Shown here one piece after another: positions 21,449-55,116 of a DNA stretch of 64,000 bases; position 1 is the stretch's first letter; each line of letters opens with the position of its first letter. Location of the stretch: assembly GCA_965227045.1 (NCBI GenBank), contig OZ245718.1, positions 3,223,528 through 3,287,527 on the forward strand. The letters are read 5' to 3'. The position numbers and the translations under genes were made by a program. The notes under the pieces are model-generated. The model ran no database searches. It saw only the letters and a program-made list of their open reading frames with translations, and was not told where the DNA came from. The DNA is from Actinomycetes bacterium. GTDB taxonomy: Bacteria; Actinomycetota; Actinomycetes; S36-B12.

Positions 21449-21486
21449 TCCTCGAACTTCACCAGCCTCGAACGGGAGTGACCGTC

Positions 21487-23769: not shown

Positions 23770-23790
23770 ACTGTCTGCGATGGAGGGGTC

Positions 23791-36951: not shown

Positions 36952-36963
36952 TTCCACGTTCAG

Positions 36964-37005
36964 CATGCGGGTGGGGCCTGGCGACAACTGGTCCCCACCC
37001 GCATG
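36964..37005. terminator. hairpin between convergent genes
   Basis: CATGCGGGTGGGG ... CCCCACCCGCATG: 13-bp stem, 16-nt loop. Confidence 0.45.
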
Positions 37006-37037
37006 TCGTCGTGAGGAGAGGAGAGCCTCGGCCTCGG

Positions 37038-37972
37038 CTAGCTCGCGAGCATCTCCTCCGATACTCGCCACAGTCGAGCGGCGAGCTCCGGATCCGTCGA
37101 GTATGGGGCGTACCCGGTGCGCTCTCCGGGCATGTTCGGCCCGGCCTCGTTGCAGTCCTCGAAGTAGCGTCCACCGATACCTTCGACCAGCGGAGACCCG
37201 GCGAGTAGGGTCGAAGTCGCGGCGCCCTGCTCGACCGTCTTGAAGTCGACGACGTGATTCCCGCGCAGCCTGTCGAAGTCCTCCTGCGACACATGGCGAA
37301 TCAGCTTCGTCTGGATCACACCAGGCATGAGGGCGTTGGCGCTTATGCCTTCGTCCGCCCATCTGTTCGCTAACTCGACGGCGAACAGGATGTTCGCGGT
37401 CTTCGACTGGCCGTAAGCGGTCCAAGGGTTGTACTTGCGGTCGTCGTCGTGGACGTCTTCGAACACGACTGGGGAGTAGAGGTGCCCAGCTGAGCTCACC
37501 GCCATAACGCGGGCACGGCCGGCCGCGGCCAGGTTGGCGCGAAGGCCCGTCGTCAGCGCGTGATGCCCGAGGTGATTGGTAGCGAGCTGCAGTTCGCAAC
37601 CTTCGGGAGTGCGTGTCAGGGGCGTGGCCATCACGCCTGCATTGTTGACGAGAATGTGCAGGGGTCCTTCCCAGACGGCGACGAAGGAGGCGACGCTTGC
37701 TCGATCGCTGAGATCCAGCGGTCCACGGAGATGGTCCCGTCCCGATCAGCGATCTCTGAAGTCGCTCGCGCGCCAGCATCCACGTCACGGACGGCAAGGG
37801 TGACTTCCGCTCCGGCTGAGGCGAGGGCTCGGCCCGTTTCCAATCCGATACCGGAAGATCCGCCGGTTACGATCGCGCGTTTGCCCGAGAGATCGACCCC
37901 TTCCAAGACCTCTGCTGCGGTCGATCTAGCACCGAACGGTGTGAGGGCGCTGCGGCGGTTGGCGTTGTTCAT
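37038..37972 (-). pseudogene. frameshifted SDR (retinol-dehydrogenase/WWOX-like)
   Basis: Two ORFs (37631..37972 and 37038..37634) together form one SDR (TGGSSGIG ... YGQSK). Shifting frame near 37718-37726 restores LDLSDRASVASFVAVWEGPLHILVNNAGVMATPL. Confidence 0.7.
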
Positions 37973-38046: not shown

Positions 38047-39081
38047 CTATTCTTTGCCGGGATAGAAGGTTGCCGCCCATTCCCTCAGGTCGTGATAGGC
38101 GCGTGCTTCCAGCTTCGGGTACGGGGGATGCTCGATGAGTGTCTGTCGCGACCAGATGGGCATGTCAGCCTCGACCTGCTCGAAGAAGTGACAAGAGAGA
38201 CGCGTGGCGAACTCGGGTCCACTTAGCCGGCCCATACTGCCTTTAGCACCGATGAGCGCAGAGAAGAAGTCCGACGCTTTGCCCTGCGCATCAATTGGCG
38301 TCACTGCTGTCAGCTGCATCGTCGGGTGGATGCCTTCGTATGTGGTCGCAATGAAGCCGAGACCCCAGCAGTCCATGTGCGACGCGCCGTCGATGGGACC
38401 GTCTGGTGTCAGCCAAGTGGAGGGCTTGCCGCCTCCCCAGGTGTAGCGCAGTTCCGTGGCGAAGAGCGGCCCATCGGCGCCGGACCGGGCGACTTCCGGG
38501 ACTTCGGCGGAGTGATGCACGAAACGAACATGCGCAGGGTCGGCGACGTTCTCGACTGCCTGTTGCGGATGGACGCTGACGCTAGGCCAGACTCGGCAGT
38601 AATCGGGGTAATAGCAGAGGTAGTCGTTGCTGGCGCACTGGTGGTACGCAGGAATGCGCCAGGTCGGTTTGCTGCCCGCAGAGTCGTACCAGACAAAGAT
38701 CATGCCGTTGACCTCGTGCACGAGCCACGGGGCCAACGCGCAACGGCTCGTCTCGCCCGTACAGGAGATGGCTGTGTTCTCGCCGGCGCTGTTTCTCCGC
38801 AAGCCATGGAATCGGCACCTCAGTTGGCCGTCAGCTTGGTGGCCTCTTTCGAGATCGTCGCCGAGGCGGGGGGAGTGCGCATCGGAGACTCGCGCCTCTC
38901 CCGACGAAGTTCGGAAGCAAATCAGGTCGGCACCGAAGTAGCGCAGATTCAAGGTCGTGTCACCGCGTACCTGCTCGGACCATGCGACGCAGTACCACGA
39001 AGTCGGAATGCCCTGCTCATAGTGGTATCGATGCACGGGCGGTCGCACCGCGACATCGGTCGACAACATCCGGGTCACCAA
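38047..39081 (-). CDS. Rieske-oxygenase paralog with degenerate Rieske ligands (intact ORF)
   Basis: 344 aa, colinear with 12900..13943. CPH has become SPR while CRFH is retained. The mononuclear Fe motif ENVADPAHVRFVHH is retained. Confidence 0.7.
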   Translation of the reverse strand: MVTRMLSTDVAVRPPVHRYHYEQGIPTSWYCVAWSEQVRGDTTLNLRYFGADLICFRTSSGEARVSDAHSPRLGDDLERGHQADGQLRCRFHGLRRNSAGENTAISCTGETSRCALAPWLVHEVNGMIFVWYDSAGSKPTWRIPAYHQCASNDYLCYYPDYCRVWPSVSVHPQQAVENVADPAHVRFVHHSAEVPEVARSGADGPLFATELRYTWGGGKPSTWLTPDGPIDGASHMDCWGLGFIATTYEGIHPTMQLTAVTPIDAQGKASDFFSALIGAKGSMGRLSGPEFATRLSCHFFEQVEADMPIWSRQTLIEHPPYPKLEARAYHDLREWAATFYPGKE

Positions 39082-39309: not shown

Positions 39310-39325
39310 TAGGACACCAGTCCTA
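39310..39325. promoter_or_regulatory. perfect TAGGAC-N4-GTCCTA palindrome
   Basis: TAGGACACCAGTCCTA upstream of ABC operon 2. An extra GTCCTA half-site lies at 39340-39345. Confidence 0.6.
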
Positions 39326-39368
39326 GTCCTCGGTCGGGCGTCCTATTCGTGGCGCCCTAGCAGCTAGC

Positions 39369-40943
39369 GTGTTCGGAGGGCTTTGTGCTGGGAAATGCGG
39401 GCGCGAACCCTGTGGTGTCGCGGTGACGCGGTTCGACGCGACCGCACCCGCGCTTCGCTTGCGCGGCGTGTCAAAGACCTTTCCGGGAGTGCGAGCCCTG
39501 AGCGGCTTGGACCTCGACGTTCGCACGGGGACTGTCCATGCGCTCCTGGGCCACAACGGTTCGGGCAAGTCGACGGCAATCAAGCTGCTAGCTGGCTTGT
39601 ATTCGGCGGACCCGGGCAGCGAGGCGTGGGTGGGCGGTCAGCGTTTGCATCTAGGCGATGCTGCAGCGGCGTCGAGATGCGGTTTGCGTTTCGTCCACCA
39701 GGACCTCGGGATCGTGCCCGAGTTGAGCGTGGCCGAGAATTTTGCGCTCGGCACTGGGTTCGAGCGTGGTCGTTTCGGCCTGATCGACTGGCCCGCGCAG
39801 CGTGCTCAGGCTCAGGCGCTGCTGGCGCGATTCGGCTTCGACATTGACGTGGATGCACCGCTAGGGGCGGCGAGCCCTTCAGCGCGCGCTGCGGTTGCGA
39901 TCGTGCGCGCCATTACCGACTGGCCGGAGGCCGGCGGGGTGCTTGTGCTCGACGAGCCCACAGCCGCCTTGGCGGCGCGCGAGGTGGACCGCCTCTTCGA
40001 GCTGGTGCGCGCGGTGACTCGAGAGGGCGGAACGGTGATCTTTGTCGGCCATCGGCTGGACGAGATCATGACGATCGCGGACAACGCGACGCTTCTGCGC
40101 GATGGCCTGGTGGTATGGGATGGACCGCTGGCGGACACGAGTCTGCAGGGGCTGGTCAGCATGATCGCCAATGACGAGGACGCGGTTCTCGAAACGGGGA
40201 CGAAGCGACAAGCGGTGGGCTCCGCGCCTGCGGCGCAGGTTGTGCTGGACTGCCGCGGGATCGAGGGTGAGTTCCTGAACGGAGTCGATCTAGTCGTTCG
40301 TTCGGGAGAGATCGTCGGCGTAGCGGGGCTACTCGGCTCTGGCCGCGAGGAACTCCCATACCTACTCGGCGGCGACCCTCAGTCGGTTGCTCGGGGAGAT
40401 CTCGCCTCGGTGCAGGCCGGTTCGGGTACGGGGATCAGCTTCGTGCCAGCCGACCGCTTGCGTGAGTCCATATTCGAAGGGTTCACGACTGCGGAGAACG
40501 TCTCCCTCGCAGGGTTGCCCTCCATCCGGCAGCGGGGCGTGGTCACGTACGCCGCTGAGCGCCGCGCGGTCGAGAGCTGGCTCGCGGCGACAAACACCGA
40601 CGTGGCGTACGCGCCGCGACCGATCCTTACGTTGAGCGGCGGTAACCAGCAGAAGGCGGTCCTCGCCCGGGCGCTGTCGACTAACCCGTCAGTGCTTGTG
40701 CTCTCCGAGCCGACCGCCGGCGTTGACATCGGTGCACGCCGAGTCATCTACGAAGAACTGAAGCGTCGGGCTGGCGATGGCCTGGCCATCGTGGTCGCAT
40801 CCTCCGACGTCGAGGACCTACTTGCCTGCTGCACTCGTGTGGTGGTCCTGCGGGACGGGAAAGTCACGGCGGAGTTCGACGCTCCGCTGTCCAAGACGGC
40901 CATTACCTACGCGATCGAAGGTGCACATGAACAACAAGACTGA
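39369..40943 (+). CDS. sugar-type (CUT2-like) ABC transporter ATP-binding protein, two cassettes
   Basis: GHNGSGKST, LVLDEPT, GLLGSGREE, LSGGNQQKA, LVLSEPTAGVD. The likely true start is GTG at 39417 or 39423. Confidence 0.9.
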   Translation: MFGGLCAGKCGREPCGVAVTRFDATAPALRLRGVSKTFPGVRALSGLDLDVRTGTVHALLGHNGSGKSTAIKLLAGLYSADPGSEAWVGGQRLHLGDAAAASRCGLRFVHQDLGIVPELSVAENFALGTGFERGRFGLIDWPAQRAQAQALLARFGFDIDVDAPLGAASPSARAAVAIVRAITDWPEAGGVLVLDEPTAALAAREVDRLFELVRAVTREGGTVIFVGHRLDEIMTIADNATLLRDGLVVWDGPLADTSLQGLVSMIANDEDAVLETGTKRQAVGSAPAAQVVLDCRGIEGEFLNGVDLVVRSGEIVGVAGLLGSGREELPYLLGGDPQSVARGDLASVQAGSGTGISFVPADRLRESIFEGFTTAENVSLAGLPSIRQRGVVTYAAERRAVESWLAATNTDVAYAPRPILTLSGGNQQKAVLARALSTNPSVLVLSEPTAGVDIGARRVIYEELKRRAGDGLAIVVASSDVEDLLACCTRVVVLRDGKVTAEFDAPLSKTAITYAIEGAHEQQD

Positions 40944-41991
40944 GGCATCGAGCCGACCGGCATCGGTAGGTTCCGCAGTTGCCCCCTCGCGCAGGTCCTG
41001 GCTGCGCAAGTTCAGCTTTGTAAACATCAGCGTGCTTTATGTGTTGATCGTTGTCATCATCATCTTCTCGCTGTGGGCACCGGAAACCTTCCCGACTTGG
41101 ACTACCGCGCGATCGATCCTTAATGGCATGGCCGTCCCCGGCTTCATGGCACTGGCCGCCATCCTGCCGCTGTCGGCACGACAGTTCGACCTCTCGATCG
41201 GAGCCTCGATGGGCTTCGCAAACATGCTGGTGGCATTCCTGCTCGTTACCCAGGGCATGCCGGTCGTGCCCGCGATTCTGATCACCTTGTGCGCTGGGCT
41301 GGTGATGGGTGTGATCAATGGAGTCGTGGTGGTCAACGCCCGCATCGACGCCATCATCGGCACTCTTGCGACCGCGGCCCTGTTCACATCAGCGACGTCG
41401 ATCATCTCTGGGCAAACGATCACAGGTGTGGTCATGTTCGGCGACTTCGCGAAGATCGCCACCACCAGCATCGGTGGGATTACCCTCCCGGTCATCCTCA
41501 TGCTTCTTACTGGGCTCGTTATCTGGGTCTTTCAACGGTTCACCGTCACGGGCCGCCGCATCTACGCCATCGGCTATAACGAACGCGGCGCGGAACTTCT
41601 CGGTATCAACCTCAAGAGGCTCAAATACCTTGCTTTGATCATTGGTGCCGTTGTCGCCGTCATTGCCGGAATCATCTTGGCCTCGACCGTGAGTTCCGGC
41701 ACCCCCGGAATTGGTGCGCCCTACCTTCTCAATGCCTACGCAGCGGCCTTTCTCGGATCTACACAGTTCGGAGGGAAGTTCAACGTCTGGGGCACAGTGC
41801 TGGCCGTCCTGATGCTCACGACCGCCACTAACGGCATTTACCTTGTCGGCGGCGCAGTGTGGGTTCAGGGACTTTTCAGTGGCTTCGTTCTACTTTTCGC
41901 GCTTGGCGCATCCAACCTCGAACGGGCCATTCAGGCACGCAACTGGGTCCGCCGCAAACGCTCCAACAGTGGACAGCAGGCACCGGCCTGA
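40927..41991 (+). CDS. ABC transporter permease (RbsC/AraH-like)
   Basis: ATG 40927 overlaps the ATPase 3' end by 17 nt; the ORF opens at 40777. Multi-TM protein with motif IGYNERGAELLGIN. Confidence 0.85.
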   Translation: MNNKTEASSRPASVGSAVAPSRRSWLRKFSFVNISVLYVLIVVIIIFSLWAPETFPTWTTARSILNGMAVPGFMALAAILPLSARQFDLSIGASMGFANMLVAFLLVTQGMPVVPAILITLCAGLVMGVINGVVVVNARIDAIIGTLATAALFTSATSIISGQTITGVVMFGDFAKIATTSIGGITLPVILMLLTGLVIWVFQRFTVTGRRIYAIGYNERGAELLGINLKRLKYLALIIGAVVAVIAGIILASTVSSGTPGIGAPYLLNAYAAAFLGSTQFGGKFNVWGTVLAVLMLTTATNGIYLVGGAVWVQGLFSGFVLLFALGASNLERAIQARNWVRRKRSNSGQQAPA

Positions 41992-42080
41992 AGTCCAGCT
42001 CCCGGGCATCACCTGTACGACGCGATCCCGGCGCGCCCCGCCCAACCCACGCAATGTCATACGAGAGGAAAGACCGTTCT

Positions 42081-43292
42081 ATGTCTATCATCCGAGGCAG
42101 ATCCGCCCGCACCCTCGCAGCGTCCGTCGCTATCGCGGCCGCCCTCATCGCGACCACAGCAGCTTGTGGCAGCAGCAGCACGGCCGACTCCACTGCATCG
42201 ATCGAATCTGGCGGTCCCTCAGATGCGTCGACCGCATCTACAGATCCGTCGACCGCGCCGTCCGCGGAAACCATGAAGGAGATTGCTGCGGCAGCCGTCG
42301 CGGAGTACATCGACGCGCCTGCCACCATCGGTATCGCGGAACCGCTCGGTCAGGCCGTTCCCGCGGACAAGACGGTTGCGTTCATCACTGCGGGCCCGGG
42401 TGGTACGGGCATCGCGCTGACCCAGAAGGCACTGCAAGAGGCGGCCGAGAAGGTCGGATGGACGATCAAGGTGATCGAACCCGAGTCTCCGGCACCGCAG
42501 GCTATGCAGCAGGCGCTCACTCAAGCGATTCAGCTGAATCCAGATGCCGTAATCATGAACTCGGGTGATGTGACCGCACTCAAGACTCAGCTCGCCGAGC
42601 TGAAAGACAAAGGTATCCCAGTCGTACAGACTTTTGGATTTACCAGCCAAGAGGATCAGGTCGACCTGAGCTTCTTCTCCACTGGGGAGATGGCGAGACT
42701 CGCGGGGCTCACGGCTGATGCGGCAGTGGCGAAGCTAGACGCACCAGGAGAGTTCGGTGTCGTAACGATCGAGGGTTATCCGGCTGCGGACGAAACCGTC
42801 AAGGGTTTCACCGACAGGCTTACAGAACTCTGCTCCGAATGCACGACCGTGCCGATCGTGCTGTCCCTAGCTTCCCTCGGCGGTAGCGCTGGTACGGACA
42901 TCGTCAATGCCTACCGCGCCAATCCGAACATGCAGGGCATCTTCGTTCCATTCGATCAGCTGAGCGCCGCTCTGTTCCCCGCGGCACAGCAGGCTGGCGT
43001 CGACCTGCCCCCCGTCTACGTCCTAGCGACGGTCCCCGGCACCATTCTTAGCCTCCAGAGCGGCGATATCGAGGCCGCTGTTCAGGTCGACAACCAGTCG
43101 CTGGGCTGGCGTTACGTAGATGCATTGTCCCGCATCTTCACCGACCAGATCGAGTCAGCCAAGGCCGTTCAGCAGCTCCCGTCCCAGCTTTGGTCCAACG
43201 CTTACGACAACGTTCCCGAAGTTCCTTCTGATGGGACATTCCCGACGCTTGTGGAGGACTACAAGGACCAGTACGAGGCGCTCTGGAAGTAG
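42081..43292 (+). CDS. lipoprotein substrate-binding protein (group B)
   Basis: ATG 42081 follows GAGAGGAAAG; the ORF opens at 41859. Lipobox TTAAC, S/T/A/P-rich linker. Ends QYEALWK. Paralog of 53724..54929. Confidence 0.75.
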   Translation: MSIIRGRSARTLAASVAIAAALIATTAACGSSSTADSTASIESGGPSDASTASTDPSTAPSAETMKEIAAAAVAEYIDAPATIGIAEPLGQAVPADKTVAFITAGPGGTGIALTQKALQEAAEKVGWTIKVIEPESPAPQAMQQALTQAIQLNPDAVIMNSGDVTALKTQLAELKDKGIPVVQTFGFTSQEDQVDLSFFSTGEMARLAGLTADAAVAKLDAPGEFGVVTIEGYPAADETVKGFTDRLTELCSECTTVPIVLSLASLGGSAGTDIVNAYRANPNMQGIFVPFDQLSAALFPAAQQAGVDLPPVYVLATVPGTILSLQSGDIEAAVQVDNQSLGWRYVDALSRIFTDQIESAKAVQQLPSQLWSNAYDNVPEVPSDGTFPTLVEDYKDQYEALWK

Positions 43293-43301
43293 AACTGTCC
43301 C

Positions 43302-43340
43302 GAAGCAGGTGGGGACTCCTGAGAAGTCCCCACCTGCTTC
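43302..43340 (+). terminator. strong hairpin after ABC operon 2
   Basis: GAAGCAGGTGGGGACT-CCTGAGA-AGTCCCCACCTGCTTC: 16-bp perfect stem, 7-nt loop. Confidence 0.6.
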
Positions 43341-43408
43341 TGCAGTGTCTTGGAAGTCAACCCGGCGGCATGTGACCGGCTAGCCGGGTCAAGTCAAGAG
43401 GAGGCGCG

Positions 43409-45805
43409 ATGCAGGATTCGTCGGTCCGCGGTGTTTCGACTAGCACGCCGGACGGCATCATCCGTAATCGGCAGGTGGACATGGCGAAGTTGGAGCCGGG
43501 GGCGTGGGACGGTCGGGGGCTTCCGTACCTTCCGCAGATCGATTTGCGTATCGATCCGAGCCTGAAGCTCCACACGGGGTTCGATCTTGATGTCGATCCG
43601 ATCACCTACCAAGTGCTGCGGTCTCGGTTCTGGAACTTGAATCTGGACCACTCGGACACCATCAAGCGGATGTCGGGCTCGGCCGTCGTCGTCTACATGG
43701 ACGACCTGAATACCTCGTTGCTCACGGAGAACGGCGACACGATCGTAGCTGGGCCGTCAATTCAGTACTTCACGGGTCATGGGGACTTGGTAGTGAAGTG
43801 GACTCTGGAGAACCGCAGCGCAAACCCGGGCATCGAAGATGGAGATGTGTTCCTGCAGAACGACCCCTATATCGGCACGGCTCACCAAAACGACGTGATG
43901 ACGTATGCCCCGATCTTCTGGGAGGGAGCACTCTTCTGCTGGGTACTTAGCGCCACGCACGTCGGGGATATTGGGGGGACCCAGCCTGGAGGGTTCTGCC
44001 CCGATGCTCCCGACATCTTCAGCGAAGCCACACCAGTCCCTCCTATCAAGTTCGTCCGTGCCGGAATTCCGCAAGACGACGTCGTGGACATGTTCGCGCG
44101 CAAGAGTCGTGCTCCCGATCAGATCCGACTTCAGTTACGCAGCCAGCTCGCAGGCCTTCGCCTCACTCGTGAGCGGATCCACGAGATGCTGGAGGAGTAC
44201 GGCCCCTTGGTCGTCAAGGGCACGATGCGCGCGATGATCCGTGACTGCTCTGAGGCGGTGGGTCGTCGTCTGGAACAGATTCCCGACGGGGAGTGGACAG
44301 AGACCCTGTACATCGCCAATGTGGCGCCTGGCGATCGTGCGGTCCACCGTCTCGTCACGACGGTTCGCAAGGAGGGCGACAGGCTCTACCTCACCAATGA
44401 GGGCAGCGATCCCCAGTTCGGCGCTGGTAACGCACCTTTCACGGCGTGGCGCTCCAGCCTCATGTGCGCGGGGGCGGCCCTGTTTGGCTACGACCAGTTC
44501 AACTGCCCCGCCGGAGTCGTTGACCATATGGAGTTCTTGCCGATACCCGGCACCATGACCTGCGCGCGGTACCCCGCAGCCGTGACGACTCCGGCCGCAT
44601 CGCTTGTCATTGTCTACTTGGCGAGTCAGGTCCTGAGCAAGATGGCGCTCGCCGGACCGCCTGATGTGCGAAAGACCGCGAACGCGACGGGTGGTACATC
44701 CTGCCCCAGTTTCTGGGTAGGCGTAGGACTGGACCGAAAAGGCAGGTTCGTCGCGGAGGTGCCCGGAGACCCCCTTGCAGGTTCTATCGGGGCATTTCCC
44801 GATCGCGACGGCGTCGATACCGGCGGCGCGTGGTGGTGGCCGAATTCCAACGCTGGCAACGTCGAGAACTGGGAGGCCGCCTCACCGATCCTGTATCTGT
44901 TCCGCCGTGAGCAGGCCGACAGCGGCGGTGCCGGGCTCTGGCGCGGCGGCAACGGACTCGAACTCTGTGTCGTTCCGCACAAGACTGAGCAGTTCACAGC
45001 ACAGATCGTTTCCAATGATCCCGCGATCAACACGTCCGCTGGCCTCGCAGGTGGGATGCCTGGTCACCCGGGAAACCACCTCGCCAGTCTGGGCTCGTCG
45101 ATTCAGGAGGGGTTCAAGGCGGGCAAGCTGCCGGCCTCGCGGGCTGAACTCGAGGAGGCGTTTGGAGCAATGCGTCGGCTCGATCCCAAGACCGTTGCCC
45201 AACTAGACAGCAGCGACGTCCTTCTTGTGGGCTTTAGCGGTGGAGGAGGATACGGCGATCCATTGCTACGGAAAGTTGATCTCGTGGTGTCTGATCTCGC
45301 CCGCGGCCAGATCAGCGATGAGCATGCGCGCACTCACTTCGGTTGTGTCGTCGAGCGCGGCGAGGTCGACGTTGTGGCCACCGAGCGGTACCGGTCCAGG
45401 GTCGTTCGGTCGCGATTAGACCATTCCCGCTTGCGCGTCACGGAAATCGACGGCTTCTCCGAACTCGCGAAGGTTCGACGAGTGTCGGAGCTACTCGGAA
45501 TCAGCTTCGAGTCGGATGTCCCTCAGTGGGCGTGTTGTGGGTGCGGTCAGCTGCTCGGAAGTGCTGATGCGAACTTCAAGGACGGGACTTGTATCAACGA
45601 GGCGAGCCCATTCGATATCGATCCCGTGGCCTATCCGAATCCGGCGGACTTCTGTGACGTTCCCTTCGTGCTTCGCAGGTATCTGTGTCCCTCGTGCGGT
45701 GTGTGCCTCGGTTCCGAATGCGCTGCTACCGAGGATCCGCCAGCACACGACATGAAGCTTCTGCCCGCCGGCCTTCGCGCACTCGCCCAAACCGTAAACC
45801 TATGA
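43409..45805 (+). CDS. hydantoinase B/oxoprolinase (HyuB)-family subunit with C-terminal Cys-rich gamma-subunit-like domain, copy 1
   Basis: 798 aa. ATG follows AAGAGGAGG. HyuB-type blocks (NDPYIGTAHQNDV, GGAGLWRGGNG). C-terminal WACCGCG...NFKDG...RRYLCPSCGVCLGSE. Confidence 0.8.
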   Translation: MQDSSVRGVSTSTPDGIIRNRQVDMAKLEPGAWDGRGLPYLPQIDLRIDPSLKLHTGFDLDVDPITYQVLRSRFWNLNLDHSDTIKRMSGSAVVVYMDDLNTSLLTENGDTIVAGPSIQYFTGHGDLVVKWTLENRSANPGIEDGDVFLQNDPYIGTAHQNDVMTYAPIFWEGALFCWVLSATHVGDIGGTQPGGFCPDAPDIFSEATPVPPIKFVRAGIPQDDVVDMFARKSRAPDQIRLQLRSQLAGLRLTRERIHEMLEEYGPLVVKGTMRAMIRDCSEAVGRRLEQIPDGEWTETLYIANVAPGDRAVHRLVTTVRKEGDRLYLTNEGSDPQFGAGNAPFTAWRSSLMCAGAALFGYDQFNCPAGVVDHMEFLPIPGTMTCARYPAAVTTPAASLVIVYLASQVLSKMALAGPPDVRKTANATGGTSCPSFWVGVGLDRKGRFVAEVPGDPLAGSIGAFPDRDGVDTGGAWWWPNSNAGNVENWEAASPILYLFRREQADSGGAGLWRGGNGLELCVVPHKTEQFTAQIVSNDPAINTSAGLAGGMPGHPGNHLASLGSSIQEGFKAGKLPASRAELEEAFGAMRRLDPKTVAQLDSSDVLLVGFSGGGGYGDPLLRKVDLVVSDLARGQISDEHARTHFGCVVERGEVDVVATERYRSRVVRSRLDHSRLRVTEIDGFSELAKVRRVSELLGISFESDVPQWACCGCGQLLGSADANFKDGTCINEASPFDIDPVAYPNPADFCDVPFVLRRYLCPSCGVCLGSECAATEDPPAHDMKLLPAGLRALAQTVNL
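43410..43680 (+). repeat. near-identical tract shared with 46298..46568
   Basis: Over 271 nt I find one mismatch by eye (43518 G versus 46406 A). The offset between copies is 2888 nt. Confidence 0.85.
45525..45783 (+). repeat. near-identical tract shared with 48413..48671
   Basis: Over 259 nt I find one mismatch by eye (45667 C versus 48555 T). Same 2888-nt offset. Confidence 0.85.
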
Positions 45806-46131
45806 GAGAGATGGTTCCGATGACGGTCCTTGAAGTCGTACAGATTGACGTCCTACCCGGCCACGAGGAGGAGTTCGAGGCAGTCCTCCTCGACGTCGGA
45901 AAGGCCTTGCTGTCCGACGCTCAGGGTTTCGTCGAGTTCAACGCCTATGGGTGGGGAGTCGAGAGGCCGTCTGTCTACCTCTTCTCCGTTCGCTGGCAAA
46001 CAGTCGCCGACCATGTCGCGGCCAGCGCTAGCGACCGCTTCGCGCAGTGGCGTGACCTCATGGTGCCGCACTTCGCGGCTCGACCAGTCGCGGAGCACTT
46101 CCAGCTTCGGGAGGATGGGGAGTCTGCCTAG
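45802..46131 (+). CDS. ABM (antibiotic-biosynthesis-monooxygenase/Dabb) fold protein
   Basis: ATG 45802 overlaps the upstream stop (ATGA); alternative ATG at 45820. VLEVVQIDVLPGHEEEFE...YLFSVRWQTVADHV...FAQWRDLMVPHF...EHFQL is a typical ABM pattern. Confidence 0.6.
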   Translation: MREMVPMTVLEVVQIDVLPGHEEEFEAVLLDVGKALLSDAQGFVEFNAYGWGVERPSVYLFSVRWQTVADHVAASASDRFAQWRDLMVPHFAARPVAEHFQLREDGESA

Positions 46132-46209
46132 TCCAGGGCTCCCTACTTCGAGCGAAACCCCAAACGTACTTGCCGTTCGCCTCGTGCCCTGAAATGCTAC
46201 TTCAGGATG

Positions 46210-46225
46210 TAGGACAAATGTCCTA
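46210..46225. promoter_or_regulatory. perfect TAGGAC-N4-GTCCTA palindrome
   Basis: TAGGACAAATGTCCTA, 71 nt upstream of the start of HyuB-like copy 2. Confidence 0.6.
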
Positions 46226-46296
46226 GATTGCAGTCCATACGATTCGTCGCCCGGTTGAGTCCAATCGCGGACTCAAGGCTTCTTGGAGGATTCTTG

Positions 46297-48690
46297 TTGC
46301 AGGATTCGTCGGTCCGCGGTGTTTCGACTAGCACGCCGGACGGCATCATCCGTAATCGGCAGGTGGACATGGCGAAGTTGGAGCCGGGGGCGTGGGACGG
46401 TCGGGAGCTTCCGTACCTTCCGCAGATCGATTTGCGTATCGATCCGAGCCTGAAGCTCCACACGGGGTTCGATCTTGATGTCGATCCGATCACCTACCAA
46501 GTGCTGCGGTCTCGGTTCTGGAACTTGAATCTGGACCACTCGGACACCATCAAGCGGATGTCGGGCTCACCCATCGTCATCTACATGGACGACTTCAATA
46601 CCTCGTTGCTCACGGAGAACGGCGACACCATCGTCTCGGGGCCGTCGGTCCAGTACTTCACGGGTCATGGGGACTTGGTAGTGAAGTGGACTCTGGAGAA
46701 CCGCAGCGCAAACCCGGGCATCGAAGACGGAGACATTTTCCTGCAGAACGACCCTTACATTGGGACTGAACATCAGATGGATGTGATGACCTACGCCCCG
46801 ATCTTCTGGGAGGGAGCGCTCTTCTGCTGGGTGCTCAGCAACGCGCACATCGGAGACATCGGGGGCACCGAACCGGGGAGCTTCTGTCCGCAAGCACCCG
46901 ACATCTTCAGCGAGGCCACACCAGTCCCCCCGATCAAGCTTGCGCGTGCTGGGGTCCTGCAGGAGGACGTCGTGGACATGTTCGCGCGCAAGAGCCGAAC
47001 GCCCGACCAGGTCCGACTACAACTCCGTAGCCAGTTGGCGGGGCTCCGTGTGACCCGTGAGCGGATCCACGAGATGCTGGAGGAGTACGGCCCCTTGGTC
47101 GTCAAGGGCACGATGCGCGCGATGATCCGTGACTGCTCTGAGGCGGTGGGTCGCCGTCTGGAACAGATTCCCGACGGGGAGTGGACAGAGACGCTGTACA
47201 TCGGAAGTGCCTCGCCAGGTGACAGGGGCGTGCATCGAATCTCGACGACGGTTCGCAAGGAGGGCGACAGGCTCTACCTCACCAATGAGGGCAGCGATCC
47301 CCAGTTCATGTCAGCAAGCGCGCCGTTCTCGGCGTGGCGCTCGAGCCTCATGTGCGCGGGGGCGGCCCTGTTTGGCTACGACCAGTTCAACTGCCCCGCT
47401 GGAGTGGCAGATCACATGGAGTTCTTGCCGATACCCGGCACCATGACCTGCGCGCGGTACCCCGCAGCAGTGGGAACCCTGACCGCTGCCCTGCTCACGG
47501 TCTACCTGGCGAGTCAGGTCCTGAGCAAGATGGCGCTCGCCGGACCGCCGAATGTGCGAAAGACCGCGAACGCCAGCGGTGGTATTTCATGCCCGAGCTT
47601 CTGGGTAGGCGTGGGACTGGACCGCAATGGCAAGTTCGTCGCTGAGTCGCCGGGTGACCCCACCGCCGGTTCTATCGGGGCATTTCCCGATCGCGACGGT
47701 ATCGATACCGGCGGCGCGTGGTGGTGGCCGAATTCCAACGCTGGCAACGTCGAGAACTGGGAGGCCGCCTCACCGATCCTGTATCTGTTCCGCCGTGAGC
47801 AGGCCGACAGCGGCGGTGCCGGGCTCTGGCGCGGCGGCAACGGTATTCAGGTTTGCGTCATCCCCCATAAGACGACGAACTTCACGGCAATGATCGTTTC
47901 GAATGACCCGGCGATCAACACATCAGCTGGTCTCGCAGGTGGGATGCCCGGCCACCCGGGAAACCATCTAGCGAGTATGGGGTCCTCCATCAGAGAACTA
48001 TTTGGAGATGGCAAACTCCCTGCTTCCAGATCGGACTTGGAAGACGTTTTCGGGACGATGACGCGCATCGACCCCAAGACGGTATCCGGGCTAACAGACG
48101 CGGATGTCCTCGTAATCGATTTCAGTGGTGGCGGGGGGTACGGCGATCCTTTGCTTCGCGAGCTCGACCACGTCGCTTCGGACCTCGAGCATGGCTTGAT
48201 CAGTGAGGACCACGCGCGAGAGCATTATGGAGTCGTCGTCGACAGCGGCGTCCTCGACGTAGGGGCCAGCGAGTTTCAGCGCGTACAAGCCGTCCAAGTG
48301 CGCATGAGCCGTTCGCGGCCTCCGATCTCTCCAGTGCTGGGTTCTGTCGACGCCTCCCGGGTTCGGCCCTTGTCAGGAGCCTTGGGCGTCAGCTTTGAGC
48401 GCGGCTCCGCGGAGTGGGCGTGTTGTGGGTGCGGTCAGCTGCTCGGAAGTGCTGATGCGAACTTCAAGGACGGGACTTGTATCAACGAGGCGAGCCCATT
48501 CGATATCGATCCCGTGGCCTATCCGAATCCGGCGGACTTCTGTGACGTTCCCTTTGTGCTTCGCAGGTATCTGTGTCCCTCGTGCGGTGTGTGCCTCGGT
48601 TCCGAATGCGCTGCTACCGAGGATCCGCCAGCACACGACATGAAGCTTCTGCCCGCCGGCCTTCGCGCACTTGCCGAAGCCGCGTCCTAA
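46297..48690 (+). CDS. HyuB-family subunit with C-terminal Cys-rich gamma-subunit-like domain, copy 2
   Basis: TTG 46297 follows GGAGGA and is colinear with ATG 43409 of copy 1; the ORF opens at 46228. Same length core and same C-terminal Cys motifs. Confidence 0.8.
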   Translation: MQDSSVRGVSTSTPDGIIRNRQVDMAKLEPGAWDGRELPYLPQIDLRIDPSLKLHTGFDLDVDPITYQVLRSRFWNLNLDHSDTIKRMSGSPIVIYMDDFNTSLLTENGDTIVSGPSVQYFTGHGDLVVKWTLENRSANPGIEDGDIFLQNDPYIGTEHQMDVMTYAPIFWEGALFCWVLSNAHIGDIGGTEPGSFCPQAPDIFSEATPVPPIKLARAGVLQEDVVDMFARKSRTPDQVRLQLRSQLAGLRVTRERIHEMLEEYGPLVVKGTMRAMIRDCSEAVGRRLEQIPDGEWTETLYIGSASPGDRGVHRISTTVRKEGDRLYLTNEGSDPQFMSASAPFSAWRSSLMCAGAALFGYDQFNCPAGVADHMEFLPIPGTMTCARYPAAVGTLTAALLTVYLASQVLSKMALAGPPNVRKTANASGGISCPSFWVGVGLDRNGKFVAESPGDPTAGSIGAFPDRDGIDTGGAWWWPNSNAGNVENWEAASPILYLFRREQADSGGAGLWRGGNGIQVCVIPHKTTNFTAMIVSNDPAINTSAGLAGGMPGHPGNHLASMGSSIRELFGDGKLPASRSDLEDVFGTMTRIDPKTVSGLTDADVLVIDFSGGGGYGDPLLRELDHVASDLEHGLISEDHAREHYGVVVDSGVLDVGASEFQRVQAVQVRMSRSRPPISPVLGSVDASRVRPLSGALGVSFERGSAEWACCGCGQLLGSADANFKDGTCINEASPFDIDPVAYPNPADFCDVPFVLRRYLCPSCGVCLGSECAATEDPPAHDMKLLPAGLRALAEAAS
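46298..46568 (+). repeat. near-identical tract shared with 43410..43680
   Basis: See the partner feature at 43410..43680. Confidence 0.85.
48413..48671 (+). repeat. near-identical tract shared with 45525..45783
   Basis: See the partner feature at 45525..45783. Confidence 0.85.
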
Positions 48691-48722
48691 CAGTGCCTGA
48701 CGCCAGCGAAAGGGAAAGTTCG

Positions 48723-50834
48723 ATGACTACTGCACCTGTCCAGGGAACCACCTATGCCATCGGTGTTGACATCGGAGGTACCTTCACTGACTGCGTGCTG
48801 CTAGGTAGCGAGGGAACGATTGTTGGCGCCAAGTCGCCGACGACGCCGAATGACCGGTCCGAGGGCTTCTTCAACTCCATCGCGGAGGCAGGAGATCGGG
48901 TAGGTCTCTCTGTCGGGGAGCTGTTTGCGAGAACTAGCAGGATCGTGCATGGCACTACTACAGGCACAAATGCGATTGTCTCGCGCGCCGGCGCTGCGGT
49001 CGGTCTCATCACCACGGCAGGTCACGGCGACATTATGTTCATCATGCGCGGCGGAGGTCGGACCGCGGGGCTGTCGCCAGATGAGGCACTGCGTGTGCAC
49101 ACCACCTACAAGCCCGACCCTATCGTGCCGAAGACATTGATCGCGGAAATCCCTGAACGCATAGACATCGACGGTGATGTGGTCGTGCCGCTCGACGAAG
49201 TAGCGACGCGAGAAGCAATCCAGCGAGTAATTGGCGCTGGCGCCGAGGCCATTGCCATCAGCCTTCTGTGGAGCTTCCGCAACCCCCGCCATGAGCGACG
49301 CGTTCGCGAACTTGTCCGCGAGATCGCCCCGGACATGTTCGTGAGCTGTGCAAGCGACTTGGTCGCACAAATCGGTGAGTATGAGCGGACGACGACTGCC
49401 GTAATGAACGCTTACATCGGCCCCCTCATGAATCGCTACGTCAATCAGATCGTCCTAGGGGCCCGTGAACGCGGTTTCGACGGGCATGTGCTGTTCGCCC
49501 AGTGTGGAGGTGGGGCGATCACCGCGGAGGAAGCGCGATCGGCGCCAATACTTACCGTTCAGTCAGGTCCCGTTGCAGGCATCGTCAGTTCGGCCTTGCT
49601 ATGCAAGCAATTGGGCTTCGAAGATGCGCTTCTAGCGGATATGGGTGGTACGACATTTGACGTTAGCGTCATCCGTCACGGCGACCCCATCAGGCGTCGT
49701 ACATCAGTCTTTCAACGCTACGAACTCGCGCTACCGATGCTCGATGTCGAGTCCGTTGGAGCCGGGGGCGGCAGCCTCGTGTGGACGGATGAATCCGGTC
49801 GTCTGAACGTTGGGCCTCAGAGCGCAGGAGCGTTCCCTGGGCCTGCGTGCTACGAAAAGGGCAATGACATTGCCACTGTCACCGATGCCGACGTCACGCT
49901 CGGCGTGATCGATCCGAGCACTTTCTTGGACGGACGGATGAAGATCAGTGGCGAGGCGGCGGAGAGGAGCATTGCGACGGTCGCAGAGCAGTTCTCGCTG
50001 AGTGTGCCCGAGATCGCCGCGGGCGTGAACCGTCTGGTAGATGCGAAGATGGCCGACCTGATTAGGCGCATGAGCGTCATGCGTGGCCTAGATCCACGTA
50101 AGTTCGTGATGCTCGCGTTCGGTGGCGGAGGCCCTGTCCATGCATGCGCCGTCGCCAGGGAGGCTGGTGTCGGGAGAGTCATCATTCCCTTGCCCCACGT
50201 GGCCGCGATGTGGTCTGCTCTCGGGGCTGCTCTCTCCGATGTGACCCACAGCTTCTCTACGCCGCTGGAGCTGACGCTGCCCTTAGAGGGCGAAGAGCTT
50301 CGCGAGGTTTTCGCCACTATGCAGAAGCGCGCACGCGACACGTTCAACGAAACTGGCTTTGAAGGCGACGAGCCTACCTTCCAGTACACCGTCCGTATGA
50401 AGTACGCGGCGCAGGTGTTGGACGTTGAGGTGCCAATCTCCGCCGACCACCTTCAGGGCGATGTGTCGGCCAAGTTAGCTGACACGTTTGCGGATATCTA
50501 CATCGAACTGTTCGGCAAGGGTTCGGGATACGCTGCTGCAGGGATAGAAATCACCGATGGGACGGTCCATGCGACTGTTGCCACACCGAAGCCCGAGTTT
50601 CGTCGTGTTGACAATTCAGTCGCGACCCCGGTCACCCGAACGACCCGCAATGTGCACTGGGCCGAAGCCGGCACGGAGCTTCCGACCTCTGTCCTCCGAT
50701 TGAAGTCGGGCGTCGTGCCGGGCGCGATCCCAGGGCCGGCTCTGATCGAACTCCCAGATACTGTTGTCGTCGTTGGGCCGCACGACACGGCGCACTTCGA
50801 TGAGTTCGGAAACATCATCGTAGATATTGGCTAA
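48723..50834 (+). CDS. hydantoinase A/oxoprolinase (HyuA)-family ATPase subunit
   Basis: 703 aa. ATG 48723 follows GAAAGGGAAAG; the ORF opens at 48573 in the shared tract. YAIGVDIGGTFTDCVL and LADMGGTTFDV. Confidence 0.9.
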   Translation: MTTAPVQGTTYAIGVDIGGTFTDCVLLGSEGTIVGAKSPTTPNDRSEGFFNSIAEAGDRVGLSVGELFARTSRIVHGTTTGTNAIVSRAGAAVGLITTAGHGDIMFIMRGGGRTAGLSPDEALRVHTTYKPDPIVPKTLIAEIPERIDIDGDVVVPLDEVATREAIQRVIGAGAEAIAISLLWSFRNPRHERRVRELVREIAPDMFVSCASDLVAQIGEYERTTTAVMNAYIGPLMNRYVNQIVLGARERGFDGHVLFAQCGGGAITAEEARSAPILTVQSGPVAGIVSSALLCKQLGFEDALLADMGGTTFDVSVIRHGDPIRRRTSVFQRYELALPMLDVESVGAGGGSLVWTDESGRLNVGPQSAGAFPGPACYEKGNDIATVTDADVTLGVIDPSTFLDGRMKISGEAAERSIATVAEQFSLSVPEIAAGVNRLVDAKMADLIRRMSVMRGLDPRKFVMLAFGGGGPVHACAVAREAGVGRVIIPLPHVAAMWSALGAALSDVTHSFSTPLELTLPLEGEELREVFATMQKRARDTFNETGFEGDEPTFQYTVRMKYAAQVLDVEVPISADHLQGDVSAKLADTFADIYIELFGKGSGYAAAGIEITDGTVHATVATPKPEFRRVDNSVATPVTRTTRNVHWAEAGTELPTSVLRLKSGVVPGAIPGPALIELPDTVVVVGPHDTAHFDEFGNIIVDIG

Positions 50835-50942
50835 AGCCTCGCGCGTCGCCTGGCAGTCTGAACTCGCACAGGCCCGGTCGCTGCGAGTGCGGTCGGATTC
50901 ATGTATTTGATCGTCCGGCTCGAGGTGAGTCAGCATTCTCCG

Positions 50943-51905
50943 CTAAACGATATGTTTCTTCGCGCGAGGTCCAAGGACTCCTTGGGCCAGCCCCGCGCCG
51001 ATCACCACGACGACGGCACCCAAGACCTGATACCAGGCTAGTACCTCGCCAAGCAGCGCAACTCCCGCGGCGATTGCGACGAGAGGGACAAAGTATGTGA
51101 TGGAACTCGCAGTCGTCGAGTCGGTTTGCTTCACTACGTAGAGAACTAGAACAGCAACCACGCCGCTGCTAAGAGTGCCGACCGCGATCATCCCGATCAA
51201 CGCTGACGGGACTAGGGGAGCATGAGTTCCGCCAAGAACGATTGAAAAGGGCAGCACCTCCAACGTCGCTAGGAAGAACGTCACGGCCGAGAGGGCGATG
51301 GGGGAGGTGCTGACGTTCGCCTTCCCGCCCGTGAGAAAGCGGTGCGAGTAGGGGAGTGAGAACGCGTAGAGCAATACGGCTAGGAGCTGCGCACCAATGC
51401 CCACGACAGTGCCAGAGCCAACCCCATTCCACACTCCGATCACAACGAGGATCCCTGCAAATCCCAGGAAGATTCCTGCCACGCGAGTTGGCGACGCGCG
51501 TTGCTCGGGGAAGAACAGCAGGTTTAAGACGAAGACCCAGATTGCTGTCATGCTTCCTAAGACGGCGACGATCGACGTGGCAACGTGGGTGACCGCAACT
51601 CCGAGAAGCACCCACGGCACCGACGCAACCAAAAGTGAGTACACGACCAGGCGCGGCCACAAGGCAAGAGGTGGCAGGCGAGTCCTCGTAACGAGGCAGA
51701 CGAGGAGCAGCGTCGTAGCGCCTAGGACGCTGCTTCCTAGCGAGACGCCAATCGGCGTAAACGTGACGAGAGTCCAGGACGTGAACAGAAAGGTCAAACC
51801 CCATGCCAGTACGATCGCGAGGTACGCGAGGATCCAGCTCTTCGATTCAAATGGTCTGTGAGTGGACCAGTCTTCGGCGGGACTTTCACCATGTGCACCA
51901 GTCAA
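50943..51905 (-). CDS. EamA/DMT family transporter
   Basis: 320 aa, about 10 hydrophobic segments in two halves. TTG start overlaps the amidase stop (TTGA). Confidence 0.8.
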   Translation of the reverse strand: MTGAHGESPAEDWSTHRPFESKSWILAYLAIVLAWGLTFLFTSWTLVTFTPIGVSLGSSVLGATTLLLVCLVTRTRLPPLALWPRLVVYSLLVASVPWVLLGVAVTHVATSIVAVLGSMTAIWVFVLNLLFFPEQRASPTRVAGIFLGFAGILVVIGVWNGVGSGTVVGIGAQLLAVLLYAFSLPYSHRFLTGGKANVSTSPIALSAVTFFLATLEVLPFSIVLGGTHAPLVPSALIGMIAVGTLSSGVVAVLVLYVVKQTDSTTASSITYFVPLVAIAAGVALLGEVLAWYQVLGAVVVVIGAGLAQGVLGPRAKKHIV

Positions 51906-53723: not shown

Positions 53724-54929
53724 CTACTTGCCCCAAAGGGCGATGTACTGGTCTTTGTAGTCCGGGACTAGGACAGGCTGGAAGCCATCAGCAGGCAGTG
53801 CGGGTACGTTCCCGTATTCCTTCGACCAGATCTGAGTGGGCAGCTGCTGGGACTCCTTGGCTGACTCGGGCTGGCCGGTAAACAGACGTGCGAGAGCGTC
53901 AACAGAACGCCACCCCATGTCGGTTTCATCGATGGCCATAGACGCCGTTAGATCTCCGCTTTCCAGATTTCCCAGGCTGGTGACGCGCGGCGCGATGGAA
54001 TAGACAGGCGGAAGATCAACTCCCGCGGCTTCGGCCGCCGGATAGAGCGCTCCGCCGAGGCCGTCGAATGCCAGGAACAGCGCCTTCATGTCTGGAGTGG
54101 CGCGGTAGGCGTTGACAATGTCAGTACCGGCACTGCCGCCGAGCGAAGCAAGGGAGAGGACGATCGGCACGGTCGTGCACTCCGGACAAAGTTCAGCAAC
54201 ACGGTCGGTGAAGCCCTTTGCGTAACGGTCCGTTGTGGCATAGCCCTCGATGGTGACCACACCAAGCGGACCAGGAGTATCGATCTTCGAGAGCGCAGCG
54301 TCGGCATCTGTGGCGGCGAGTTTTGCCATGTCTGCGGTGGACGCAAAACTCAGTGCCACCTGGTCATCCTGATCATCAAACCCGTAGAAGTTGACGACAT
54401 GGATGCCCTGGTCCTTCAGGTCGGCGAGCTGGGTCGTTAGCGGAGTCAGATCCACGGCTGTTAGGTAGATCGCATCCGGGCTCAACTGCGCAGCTTGCTG
54501 GAGGGCTTGTTGGATCAGTTGCGGCGTCGGGGACTCGGGGGAGATCACCTTGACCGTCCATCCAAGTACGTCAGCTGCTTCCTCGATGGCCTTTACTTTG
54601 TCTGGAGTGTCCGCGGGACCTGCAGTGATCACGACCAAGTTCTTTCCTGATGGAATTGCCTTTCCCACCGGCTCGGTGATGCCGATAGTGGTGGGTGCGT
54701 CTTTGAAAGCCGCTACGGCTGCGGCGGCCTTCTCCTGCATGGTTTGTGCTGCCGATGCGCTGGACGCTTGGGAGGGTGCAGTCGACGCATCCGAAGATGC
54801 ACTGGATTCCGGTGCAGCCGTCGCTTCTGTGCTGGTAGTACTGCCGCACGCAGTAGTAGCAGCCACGGCTGCTAACACGGCGGCCGATGCTGCGAGCTTC
54901 ACTGCGGATCTCACACGGACAGTTGACAT
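53724..54929 (-). CDS. lipoprotein substrate-binding protein (group B, orphan)
   Basis: ATG at 54929; the ORF is open to 54947. Lipobox ATTAC, S/T/A-rich linker. Ends QYIALWGK. Paralog of 42081. Confidence 0.75.
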   Translation of the reverse strand: MSTVRVRSAVKLAASAAVLAAVAATTACGSTTSTEATAAPESSASSDASTAPSQASSASAAQTMQEKAAAAVAAFKDAPTTIGITEPVGKAIPSGKNLVVITAGPADTPDKVKAIEEAADVLGWTVKVISPESPTPQLIQQALQQAAQLSPDAIYLTAVDLTPLTTQLADLKDQGIHVVNFYGFDDQDDQVALSFASTADMAKLAATDADAALSKIDTPGPLGVVTIEGYATTDRYAKGFTDRVAELCPECTTVPIVLSLASLGGSAGTDIVNAYRATPDMKALFLAFDGLGGALYPAAEAAGVDLPPVYSIAPRVTSLGNLESGDLTASMAIDETDMGWRSVDALARLFTGQPESAKESQQLPTQIWSKEYGNVPALPADGFQPVLVPDYKDQYIALWGK

Positions 54930-55072
54930 ATGGCGGTATCTCCTCACCTAGATGTCGCTACGACTCGTGTCGAGCGGCTTCACACGTCTAGCGATGACCA
55001 GGCCAGCTCTCCCAGACGCTGTGTGTCGCCGAGAGCTAGTAGGTCCGCAACGGAATGATCTGCTGAGGACGG

Positions 55073-55116
55073 TCTGGTCGTATATCTAGGACTACGGTCC
55101 TAGATATACGACCAGA
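55073..55116. promoter_or_regulatory. 44-bp perfect palindrome containing a perfect TAGGAC-N4-GTCCTA core (55087..55102)
   Basis: TCTGGTCGTATATCTAGGAC-TACG-GTCCTAGATATACGACCAGA: 20-bp arms with a 4-nt centre. Lies in the divergent region between SBP 54929(-) and amidase 55402(+). Confidence 0.65.

Follow-up and report, generated by a model that had tools for sequence, protein, structure and literature searches.

A 64,000-nucleotide (nt) stretch of contig OZ245718.1 from an Actinomycetes bacterium, here called the window, carries four plus-strand genes for HyuB1, an ABM-fold protein, HyuB2 and HyuA, which were identified from the list of open reading frames (ORFs) and by reading of the sequence. 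By analogy with related enzymes, we think it fairly probable that this locus encodes two isoforms of a probable carbonyl-compound carboxylase that share one kinase subunit and go back to a tandem duplication. HyuB1 (43409..45805) is a catalytic subunit of 798 amino acids in which beta and gamma parts are fused, with an ATG start and a GAGGAGG Shine-Dalgarno sequence. The ABM-fold gene (45820..46131) encodes 103 amino acids, or 109 when the alternative start at 45802 is used. HyuB2 (46297..48690), the second beta-gamma fusion paralogue, has 797 amino acids, a TTG start and a GGAGG Shine-Dalgarno sequence, and 32 nt separate its stop codon from the start of HyuA (48723..50834), the alpha (ASKHA kinase) subunit of 703 amino acids. 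The first-pass annotation of this DNA had described two tandem HyuB genes of about 800 amino acids followed by a single HyuA gene. Both are present, and a tblastn search of the window found no further copy beyond one HyuA, two HyuB and one ABM gene.

The domain composition of the HyuB proteins was analysed with Pfam. Both copies, already described as HyuB-gamma fusions in the first-pass annotation, proved to be intact, with Hydantoinase_B (PF02538) at residues 63-618 (E = 9e-98 and 2e-99) and Acetone_carb_G (PF08882) at residues 703-783 (33 bits against a cut-off of 21). A family profile built from 19 HyuB-gamma members was then searched against the PDB chains and scored 246 bits with ApcD, 240 with AcxB, 196 with CapB and 187 with N-methylhydantoinase (NMHase). 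The profile positions 686-790 matched the gamma chains ApcB of acetophenone carboxylase (Apc; 5l9w_C, 8.6e-11) and AcxC of acetone carboxylase (Acx; 5m45_C, 3e-7). The AlphaFold2 model of HyuB1 (pLDDT 82.7, pTM 0.88) was compared with solved structures by Foldseek and matched the beta chains 5l9w_A, 5m45_A, 9h03_A and 6yra_B, with TM-scores, normalised to the target length, of 0.67-0.83 against ApcD, AcxB and CapB. Separately, the model matched the gamma chains 5svb_C, 5m45_C and 5l9w_C. The product of a separate gamma gene of the haloarchaeon Haloterrigena aligned with HyuB1 residues 684-784 (33% identity, E = 2e-9). Each HyuB polypeptide is a beta subunit joined to a gamma subunit. Since the catalytic and gamma genes are adjacent in acx operons, fusion of neighbouring genes is the obvious origin.

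We then looked at the metal sites. Four cysteines define the gamma zinc site in Acx and Apc (PMC5214803, PMC5543143), and the putative zinc ligands C709, C712, C760 and C763 are invariant across the fused family and present in both copies. In the beta part, the alignment places D99, H159, D162 and H184 of both HyuB copies on E89, H150, D153 and H175, the manganese ligands of XaAC (PMC5543143). As judged from the alignment, these ligands show an intact active site without identifying its chemistry. When the hydantoinase/ketone-carboxylase family is taken as defined by Weidenweber et al. 2017 (PMC5214803), both copies have the Hydantoinase_B fold and the metal-site residues of a beta subunit, and the four-cysteine zinc site that marks the gamma subunit of the Acx/Apc branch is found as a module fused to beta. 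The HyuB1 model was of low confidence at residues 91-98, just before D99, and in the glycine-rich region 456-487; residues 91-98 correspond roughly to a mobile Mn-proximal helix described for XaAC (PMC5543143).

HyuA contains the Pfam domains Hydant_A_N, Hydantoinase_A and Hydant_A_C. The ATP motifs of alpha subunits, defined as DxGGTxTD, DxGGT and GxxPGP (PMC8453981), are intact as DIGGTFTD at residue 16, DMGGT at 306 and GAFPGP at 369, so that HyuA shows both the ASKHA fold and the ATP motifs of the family alpha subunit. Its best structural and profile match was ApcC (E = 1e-117), and its best NCBIfam score was to CapA (513 bits, cut-off 1000); with the ApcC model it scored 416 bits (cut-off 1500). 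The HyuB proteins scored 159-170 bits with the ApcD model (cut-off 1500) and 158-168 bits with the CapB model (cut-off 1000). All NCBIfam scores were far under the equivalog cut-offs, and membership of a characterised orthologous group was rejected. By these scores, the enzyme belongs to the superfamily and lies outside every characterised orthologous group.

To place the locus among its relatives, we collected homologues of the fused HyuB-gamma protein. The family is large, with 374 homologues at E ≤ 1e-10 from Actinomycetota, Gammaproteobacteria, Sphingobium and other groups. The best 120 of the 374 were all about 745-830 amino acids long and at least 44% identical, and among the top 120 protein clusters the contig of the window was the only one to contribute two members. 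The closest non-self homologue was 68-69% identical to the HyuB copies. The comparative set comprised 42 reference-genome loci, 68 metagenome loci and the three contigs with the closest relatives. Throughout this set, relatives with both genes on the contig had a single fusion gene adjoining a single HyuA, usually in the order fusion gene to HyuA and now and then in the reverse order. Neither a tandem fusion gene nor an ABM homologue beside the fusion gene was found in any of these loci. Since about 100 related loci showed neither, the layout is ascribed to a lineage-specific tandem duplication. The arrangement had not been recognised as a described system by the first-pass annotation, and this was borne out; the NCBIfam cut-offs and the unique layout also rule out a characterised orthologous group with the same gene order. 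What was called unusual is thus the duplication and the ABM gene, whereas the base system of fusion gene and HyuA is a widespread family. New are the unique tandem paralogues, the ongoing gene conversion and the recruited ABM gene; the fused two-gene base family is common but uncharacterised. A literature search found no paper on the fused beta-gamma enzyme, its family or duplicated hyuB genes. The hyuAB pair of Gulosibacter molinativorax has another gene order and is unrelated to the locus (PMC9477822).

A known plasmid island was also considered as a source and was discarded, as megablast of positions 43000-51000 against plasmids gave nothing and the protein search gave only relatives of ≤37% identity. 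In several metagenome-assembled genomes (MAGs) of Solirubrobacterales, the fused-family pair is accompanied by a second, distant HyuB-HyuA pair (L009, L011 and L015 of our set, at about 19340-22340), which lies some 7 kb downstream of it, shows identities of about 26% and 38% and is preceded by a gene for a Peripla_BP_4 binding protein.

The DNA of the two HyuB genes showed a mosaic pattern that had been missed in the earlier annotation. The proteins are 83% identical, with 133 residues that differ, and the 400 nucleotide differences between the genes are strongly clustered. Synonymous divergence (dS) and the ratio of nonsynonymous to synonymous divergence (dN/dS) were estimated by codon block according to Nei and Gojobori. 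In the codon blocks 1-80, 121-140, 261-300, 469-515 and 706-790, dS was 0.016, corresponding to 3 synonymous differences, and dN/dS was uninformative with 3 differences of each kind. In the other blocks of the HyuB domain, dS was 0.68 and dN/dS 0.13, and in the linker 561-705 the synonymous sites were saturated (pS, the proportion of synonymous differences, 0.80) and dN/dS was not calculable. At the background rate, 192 sites would show no more than 3 synonymous differences with a probability of P = 2e-44. Within the family, the identical blocks do not stand out as the most constrained parts; the identity to the outgroups is only 68% for residues 1-80 and 56% for residues 706-790, but 99% between the copies. 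In every segment, the distance between HyuB1 and HyuB2 was smaller than that of either copy to any outgroup. Read from the two genes, the mosaic bears the signature of an old duplication followed by patchy gene conversion, and repeated patch-wise recombination appears less likely as its source.

Purifying selection acts on the diverged parts of both copies (dN/dS 0.13). Neither copy contains a frameshift or a stop, and every family-invariant column is retained in both, which disposes of the inactivating changes in one HyuB that the first-pass annotation had considered. An asymmetric divergence, with one copy neofunctionalised or decaying, was looked for and was not seen: 52 versus 57 positions are closer to the outgroups, and at conserved columns the count is 6 versus 6. 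Since both copies are under purifying selection and have all family-invariant residues, it is plausible that two alternative catalytic subunits share the one ATPase subunit, as had been suggested before. Within three residues of the metal ligands, the copies differ by L100F, A158E, N161M, A182N, T183A and V185I. These are 6 of 20 positions against a background of 10.5% (P = 0.014), which suggests, without proving it, that the environment of the active site has diverged between the two copies.

The ABM protein matched PF03992 with 36.7 bits (cut-off 23.1). Its AlphaFold2 model has the topology E-H-E-E-H-E and the top Foldseek matches were ABM proteins, so that the ferredoxin-like fold, the length of about 100 amino acids and a score above the gathering cut-off place it in the ABM superfamily. 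With HmuQ it scored 20 bits against a cut-off of 130, outside the heme-degrading IsdG/HmuQ subgroup. The ATG at 45802 overlaps the stop codon of HyuB1 in an ATGA at 45802-45805, and the first-pass annotation had concluded that the two genes are translationally coupled. The overlap exists. The coupling is doubtful and only one possible reading, since the residue of the ATG at 45820 is the first one both in the three ABM homologues and in the gene call of the database (103 amino acids). The start is more likely there, 14 nt past the HyuB1 stop.

Only three close ABM homologues were found, with about 60% identity, and none has HyuB or HyuA nearby. ABM as a regular partner of HyuB/HyuA was rejected, because the close homologues sit in ABM-ABM-Rv1265-like contexts, and for the same reason we regard the gene as recruited into the locus. 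A foreign origin by composition was also rejected, as its GC content at third codon positions (0.77) is similar to that of its neighbours. The close homologues occur as tandem ABM-ABM pairs of 121 and about 100 amino acids (L047, 3582-4237; L049, 231-907), followed in two of the three contexts (L048, L049/L050) by a protein with Rv1265_N/Mb1296_C domains. The partner ABM gene of these pairs is absent from the window.

The promoter regions were analysed by a motif search. A perfect operator palindrome, TAGGACAAATGTCCTA, lies at 46210..46225, 71 nt upstream of HyuB2, and at its 3' end it overlaps with TAGATT, a hexamer similar to a -10 element. Up to 2 mismatches were allowed in the search, and no site was found between 39345 and 46210. 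This agrees with the first-pass annotation, in which HyuB2 had its own perfect operator and HyuB1 had none. In the window, the motif TAGGAC-N4-GTCCTA occurs at 22 sites, where 1.2 are expected, and none of 100 shuffles reached this number. Eighteen of the 22 sites are intergenic and 14-300 nt upstream of ORF starts. The sites as a whole span the window from 5471 to 63799, with examples at 9457, 30978, 35770, 39310, 46210 and 55087. The operator at 46210 is not specific to the locus but marks a regulon across the whole window. The candidate regulator is a TetR-family gene at 9543-10169 on the plus strand (TetR_N and TetR_C_24); an operator-type site (9457-9472) precedes its start by 70 nt. The enrichment of promoter palindromes, including one at the gene of the regulator itself, is what a TetR-type regulon should show. 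The link to TetR is putative, and probably one TetR-controlled regulon extends over the 64-kb catabolic island. No sequence similarity was found between the upstream regions of the two HyuB genes or to other promoter regions. A sigma-70 promoter scan gave no hits in 16.5 kb and is uninformative for this organism.

Upstream of HyuB1, a CUT2-type ABC importer operon was found by Pfam at 39369..43292 on the plus strand. It consists of ORFs for a tandem-ABC ATPase (39369-40943), a BPD_transp_2 permease (40777-41991) and a Peripla_BP_4 binding protein (41859-43292); the true starts of the permease and binding-protein genes probably lie downstream of the preceding stop codons. Two adjacent operator-type palindromes, one perfect (39310-39325) and one with 2 mismatches (39330-39345), are located 23-43 nt upstream of the ATPase ORF. 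Just past the stop of the operon at 43292, a perfect stem-loop of 16 bp occupies 43302..43340 on the plus strand. The hairpin had been taken for the terminator of the ABC operon. It is present, but it has no T-run and the terminator scan did not call it, and it is possibly a partial terminator or an RNA-stabilising hairpin. From this arrangement, it is plausible that HyuB1 and ABM are cotranscribed with the importer operon.

The EamA gene and the two amidase genes are on the opposite strand, convergent to the locus, and have their own promoter region with operators at 55087 and 55313. The operator at 55087 sits in a longer perfect palindrome at 55076-55113 (ggtcgtatatc TAGGACTACGGTCCTA gatatacgacc) between the divergent binding-protein and amidase genes.

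How such an enzyme might work can be proposed from the solved complexes, which have a dimer core of HyuB-type subunits, each with one HyuA-type kinase bound (PMC8453981, PMC5214803), and in which the phosphorylated intermediate reaches the HyuB site via an internal channel (PMC8453981, PMC5214803, PMC5543143). By analogy with the Acx, Apc and CapAB structures, HyuA would use ATP to phosphorylate the enolised carbonyl substrate. The intermediate would then be channelled internally to the metal site of HyuB-gamma, where it would be carboxylated or, less likely, hydrolysed. With a HyuB-type dimer core and one HyuA per HyuB, we infer that the single HyuA may serve two isoforms, A-B1-B1-A and A-B2-B2-A, that would differ in substrate preference; a mixed core is also conceivable. 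In evolutionary terms, the beta-gamma gene would have been duplicated in tandem long ago, and the ABM-fold gene and the operator-bearing promoter region would later have been placed between the copies. Patchy conversion may hold the five blocks identical, and the remainder, including the neighbours of the ligands and the interdomain linker, would have diverged under purifying selection. HyuB2 and HyuA would be transcribed from their own operator-controlled promoter, and HyuB1 and ABM lie behind the operator-controlled ABC importer operon.

Carboxylase chemistry seems to us, by analogy, moderately probable. The family profile leans towards it, as ApcD and AcxB scored about 45-60 bits above CapB and NMHase, and the gamma module is known from carboxylases only (PMC5214803). 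We also clustered the neighbourhoods of the relatives. Conserved beside the fusion gene were HyuA, genes for short-chain dehydrogenases/reductases (SDR) and, in the close clade, the ABC importer, and nothing else; in the closest clade, a CUT2-type importer always adjoins the HyuB-gamma/HyuA pair. SDR genes together with acyl-CoA ligase or CoA-transferase genes recur beside the pair and are operonic in several relatives, and in one relative the pair adjoins a gene of the acetoacetate-decarboxylase family. The SDR and ligase or transferase context fits a route from a secondary alcohol via a ketone and a beta-keto acid to a CoA ester. Together with the gamma domain, this comparative context tends to favour carboxylation of a carbonyl compound.

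Several points weigh against the shared-kinase carboxylase. The gamma subunit is without a known catalytic role (PMC5214803), so it may be a mere correlate of carboxylases, and the same metal ligands are conserved in the hydrolase CapB and do not discriminate between a carboxylase and a lactamase. HyuA is nearest to CapA in NCBIfam, and the CUT2-type importer of the closest clade suggests a polar substrate, unlike acetone or acetophenone. The enrichment of SDR genes takes no account of kinship (many of the loci are from Solirubrobacterales MAGs) or of how common SDR genes are in general. The sharing of HyuA is read from 64 kb of a 3.46-Mb contig, and another HyuA could be encoded elsewhere. 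The mosaic, finally, could stem from imported foreign patches instead of conversion between the copies.

An ATP-dependent hydrolase of lactams, hydantoins or cyclic amides, in which the two copies open related rings and the amidases process the products, is possible, although we rate it clearly below the carboxylase. The affinity of HyuA to CapA, the good structural matches to CapB and NMHase and the polar substrate suggested by the importer would all suit such an enzyme, as would the two amidase genes and the EamA transporter, which lie within 5 kb and belong to the regulon. However, a gamma subunit is absent from all characterised hydrolases of the family (PMC5214803), the family profile prefers ApcD and AcxB over CapB and NMHase, and the scores with the CapA and CapB models are far under their cut-offs. 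The first-pass annotation had taken the amidase/EamA neighbourhood as a pointer to an amide or lactam substrate. This was not sustained, since these genes form a separate convergent unit and an amidase gene neighbours the HyuB-gamma/HyuA pair in only 1 of 33 related loci, where SDR and acyl-CoA ligase or CoA-transferase genes recur.

It is unlikely that both copies are indispensable to one mixed core, A-B1-B2-A, with a division of labour between the two HyuB-gamma subunits like that between alpha and alpha' of Apc. The central dimer of HyuB-type subunits in every solved complex (PMC8453981, PMC5214803) is in line with it, and Apc is a precedent for paralogous subunits specialising within one complex. 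In addition, both copies are conserved (dN/dS 0.13), and the first 80 residues as well as the gamma domain are kept identical by conversion, so that shared contacts would be maintained. Yet about 100 other loci make do with a single HyuB-gamma, showing that a homodimeric core suffices, and both copies have the full metal ligands and invariant residues and have diverged symmetrically. The different promoter arrangements also fit a separate use of the copies better than a fixed 1:1 stoichiometry.

Rather improbable is a composite enzyme made of the beta-gamma paralogues and ABM. In one version, a mixed core would combine unlike chemistries that may both act on one imported polar carbonyl compound. 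In the other, HyuB1 and ABM would form a pair in which ATP-driven enol-phosphate formation or carboxylation may be coupled to a cofactor-free oxygenation or isomerisation. Least probable of all is that one copy, most likely HyuB1, is redundant or decaying and that the mosaic is ongoing homogenisation: HyuB1 has no operator, lies behind a strong hairpin and takes part in active gene conversion, but against this stand the dN/dS of 0.13 in the diverged blocks, the absence of frameshifts and stops, the invariant columns and strong Shine-Dalgarno sequences kept in both copies, the symmetric divergence from the outgroups, and a dS in the unconverted blocks from 0.68 to saturation, so that both copies have been retained for long. 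Among these readings, we infer that two carboxylase isoforms with a common kinase describe the locus best.

The window as a whole is a catabolic island. It contains SDR dehydrogenases, thiolases, enoyl-CoA hydratases, a pair of an APH-type phosphotransferase and an acyl-CoA dehydrogenase (ACAD), CoA ligases, a thiamine pyrophosphate enzyme, a cupin, a 2-oxoglutarate oxygenase and the two amidases. Two CUT2-type ABC systems are present together with five paralogous Peripla_BP_4 binding proteins, most with an operator upstream. The Peripla_BP_4/ABC regions are at 17572-22620, 31012-32154, 39369-43292 and 53724-54947, and the binding-protein genes at 31012-32154 and 53724-54947 are outside the two ABC systems. 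The ORFs at 35806-36951 (plus strand, 381 amino acids) and 36916-37797 (minus strand, 293 amino acids) had no Pfam match, and the 381-residue ORF had no NCBIfam match either. The latter is probably a real member of the regulon, because a perfect operator lies 20 nt upstream of its start. Two genes for KshA-like Rieske oxygenases (Rieske and KshA_C domains) are found at 12900-13943 on the plus strand and at 38047-39081 on the minus strand, and several thiolases are of the SCP-x/Ltp type (Thiolase_C_1). This set resembles genes for steroid or terpenoid side-chain degradation.

The superfamily draws interest for CO2 fixation that needs no biotin and for lactam hydrolysis under mild conditions, and its beta-gamma fused two-gene branch is spread widely among the Actinomycetota and Proteobacteria of soil and marine habitats. 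The locus offers a natural experiment in which paralogues differ mainly near the metal site and in the linker and apparently use one kinase subunit. A comparison of HyuB1 with HyuB2 could reveal the residues for substrate specificity and for the mutual recognition of the subunit types. The locus is, moreover, a clean case, in a bacterium, of gene conversion acting in patches on tandem paralogues. It does not overturn the current understanding, as its variation on a common enzyme family, though real, is a local one.

Among the systems to which the locus can be compared, two plasmid clusters come from the same wider family and are 32-39% identical to HyuB1 and HyuA. On plasmid NZ_CP084319 of Haloterrigena alkaliphila, the genes for HyuA, HyuB and a separate gamma protein of 99 amino acids are followed by one for an AMP-binding ligase. 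Rhodococcus opacus pCP105 has SDR, HyuA, fused HyuB-gamma, SDR and acyl-CoA ligase, with a TetR gene nearby. Both are uncharacterised and, unlike the locus in the window, have a single catalytic gene, the order HyuA to HyuB and no ABM gene. The APH/ACAD pair, at 22690-25062 in the window, is also found beside the Haloterrigena HyuA-HyuB-gamma cluster (L119, 1-2780) with 28-30% identity, and that cluster also adjoins a gene of the acetoacetate-decarboxylase family. The APH/ACAD pair with HyuA-HyuB-gamma may be a pathway association that recurs across domains of life.

Caprolactamase CapAB (6yra) and NMHase (9h03) are hydrolases without a gamma domain, unlike the locus. CapAB is encoded by two genes and shares with the locus the order of catalytic subunit to kinase (capB to capA); it assembles into an (alpha-beta)2 'ABBA' complex around a dimer of CapB. 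The locus differs by its scores below the equivalog level and by a beta subunit of about 800 amino acids with gamma, compared with about 580 amino acids without gamma in CapB. The acetone carboxylase AcxABC of Xanthobacter autotrophicus and Aromatoleum aromaticum (5svb, 5m45) shares the kinase, the HyuB with its metal site and the four-cysteine gamma, and its beta and gamma genes are neighbours in the acx operons. However, the identity to AcxB is only about 23%, and the NCBIfam scan returned no Acx family. In place of three separate genes in the order acxA-acxB-acxC, the locus has gamma fused to the catalytic subunit and the order catalytic subunit to kinase. Its first metal ligand is Asp instead of Glu, and it has two catalytic paralogues and an ABC importer that points to a polar substrate. 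The best match for HyuB (ApcD), gamma (ApcB) and HyuA (ApcC) is the acetophenone carboxylase ApcABCDE of Aromatoleum aromaticum (5l9w). Apc needs an epsilon subunit and a second kinase, ApcA; the window holds no second HyuA, the scores stay below the equivalog level, and no epsilon subunit was noted, although no search was aimed at ApcE. Apc duplicates its kinase subunit (alpha, alpha'), whereas the locus described here duplicates the catalytic subunit.

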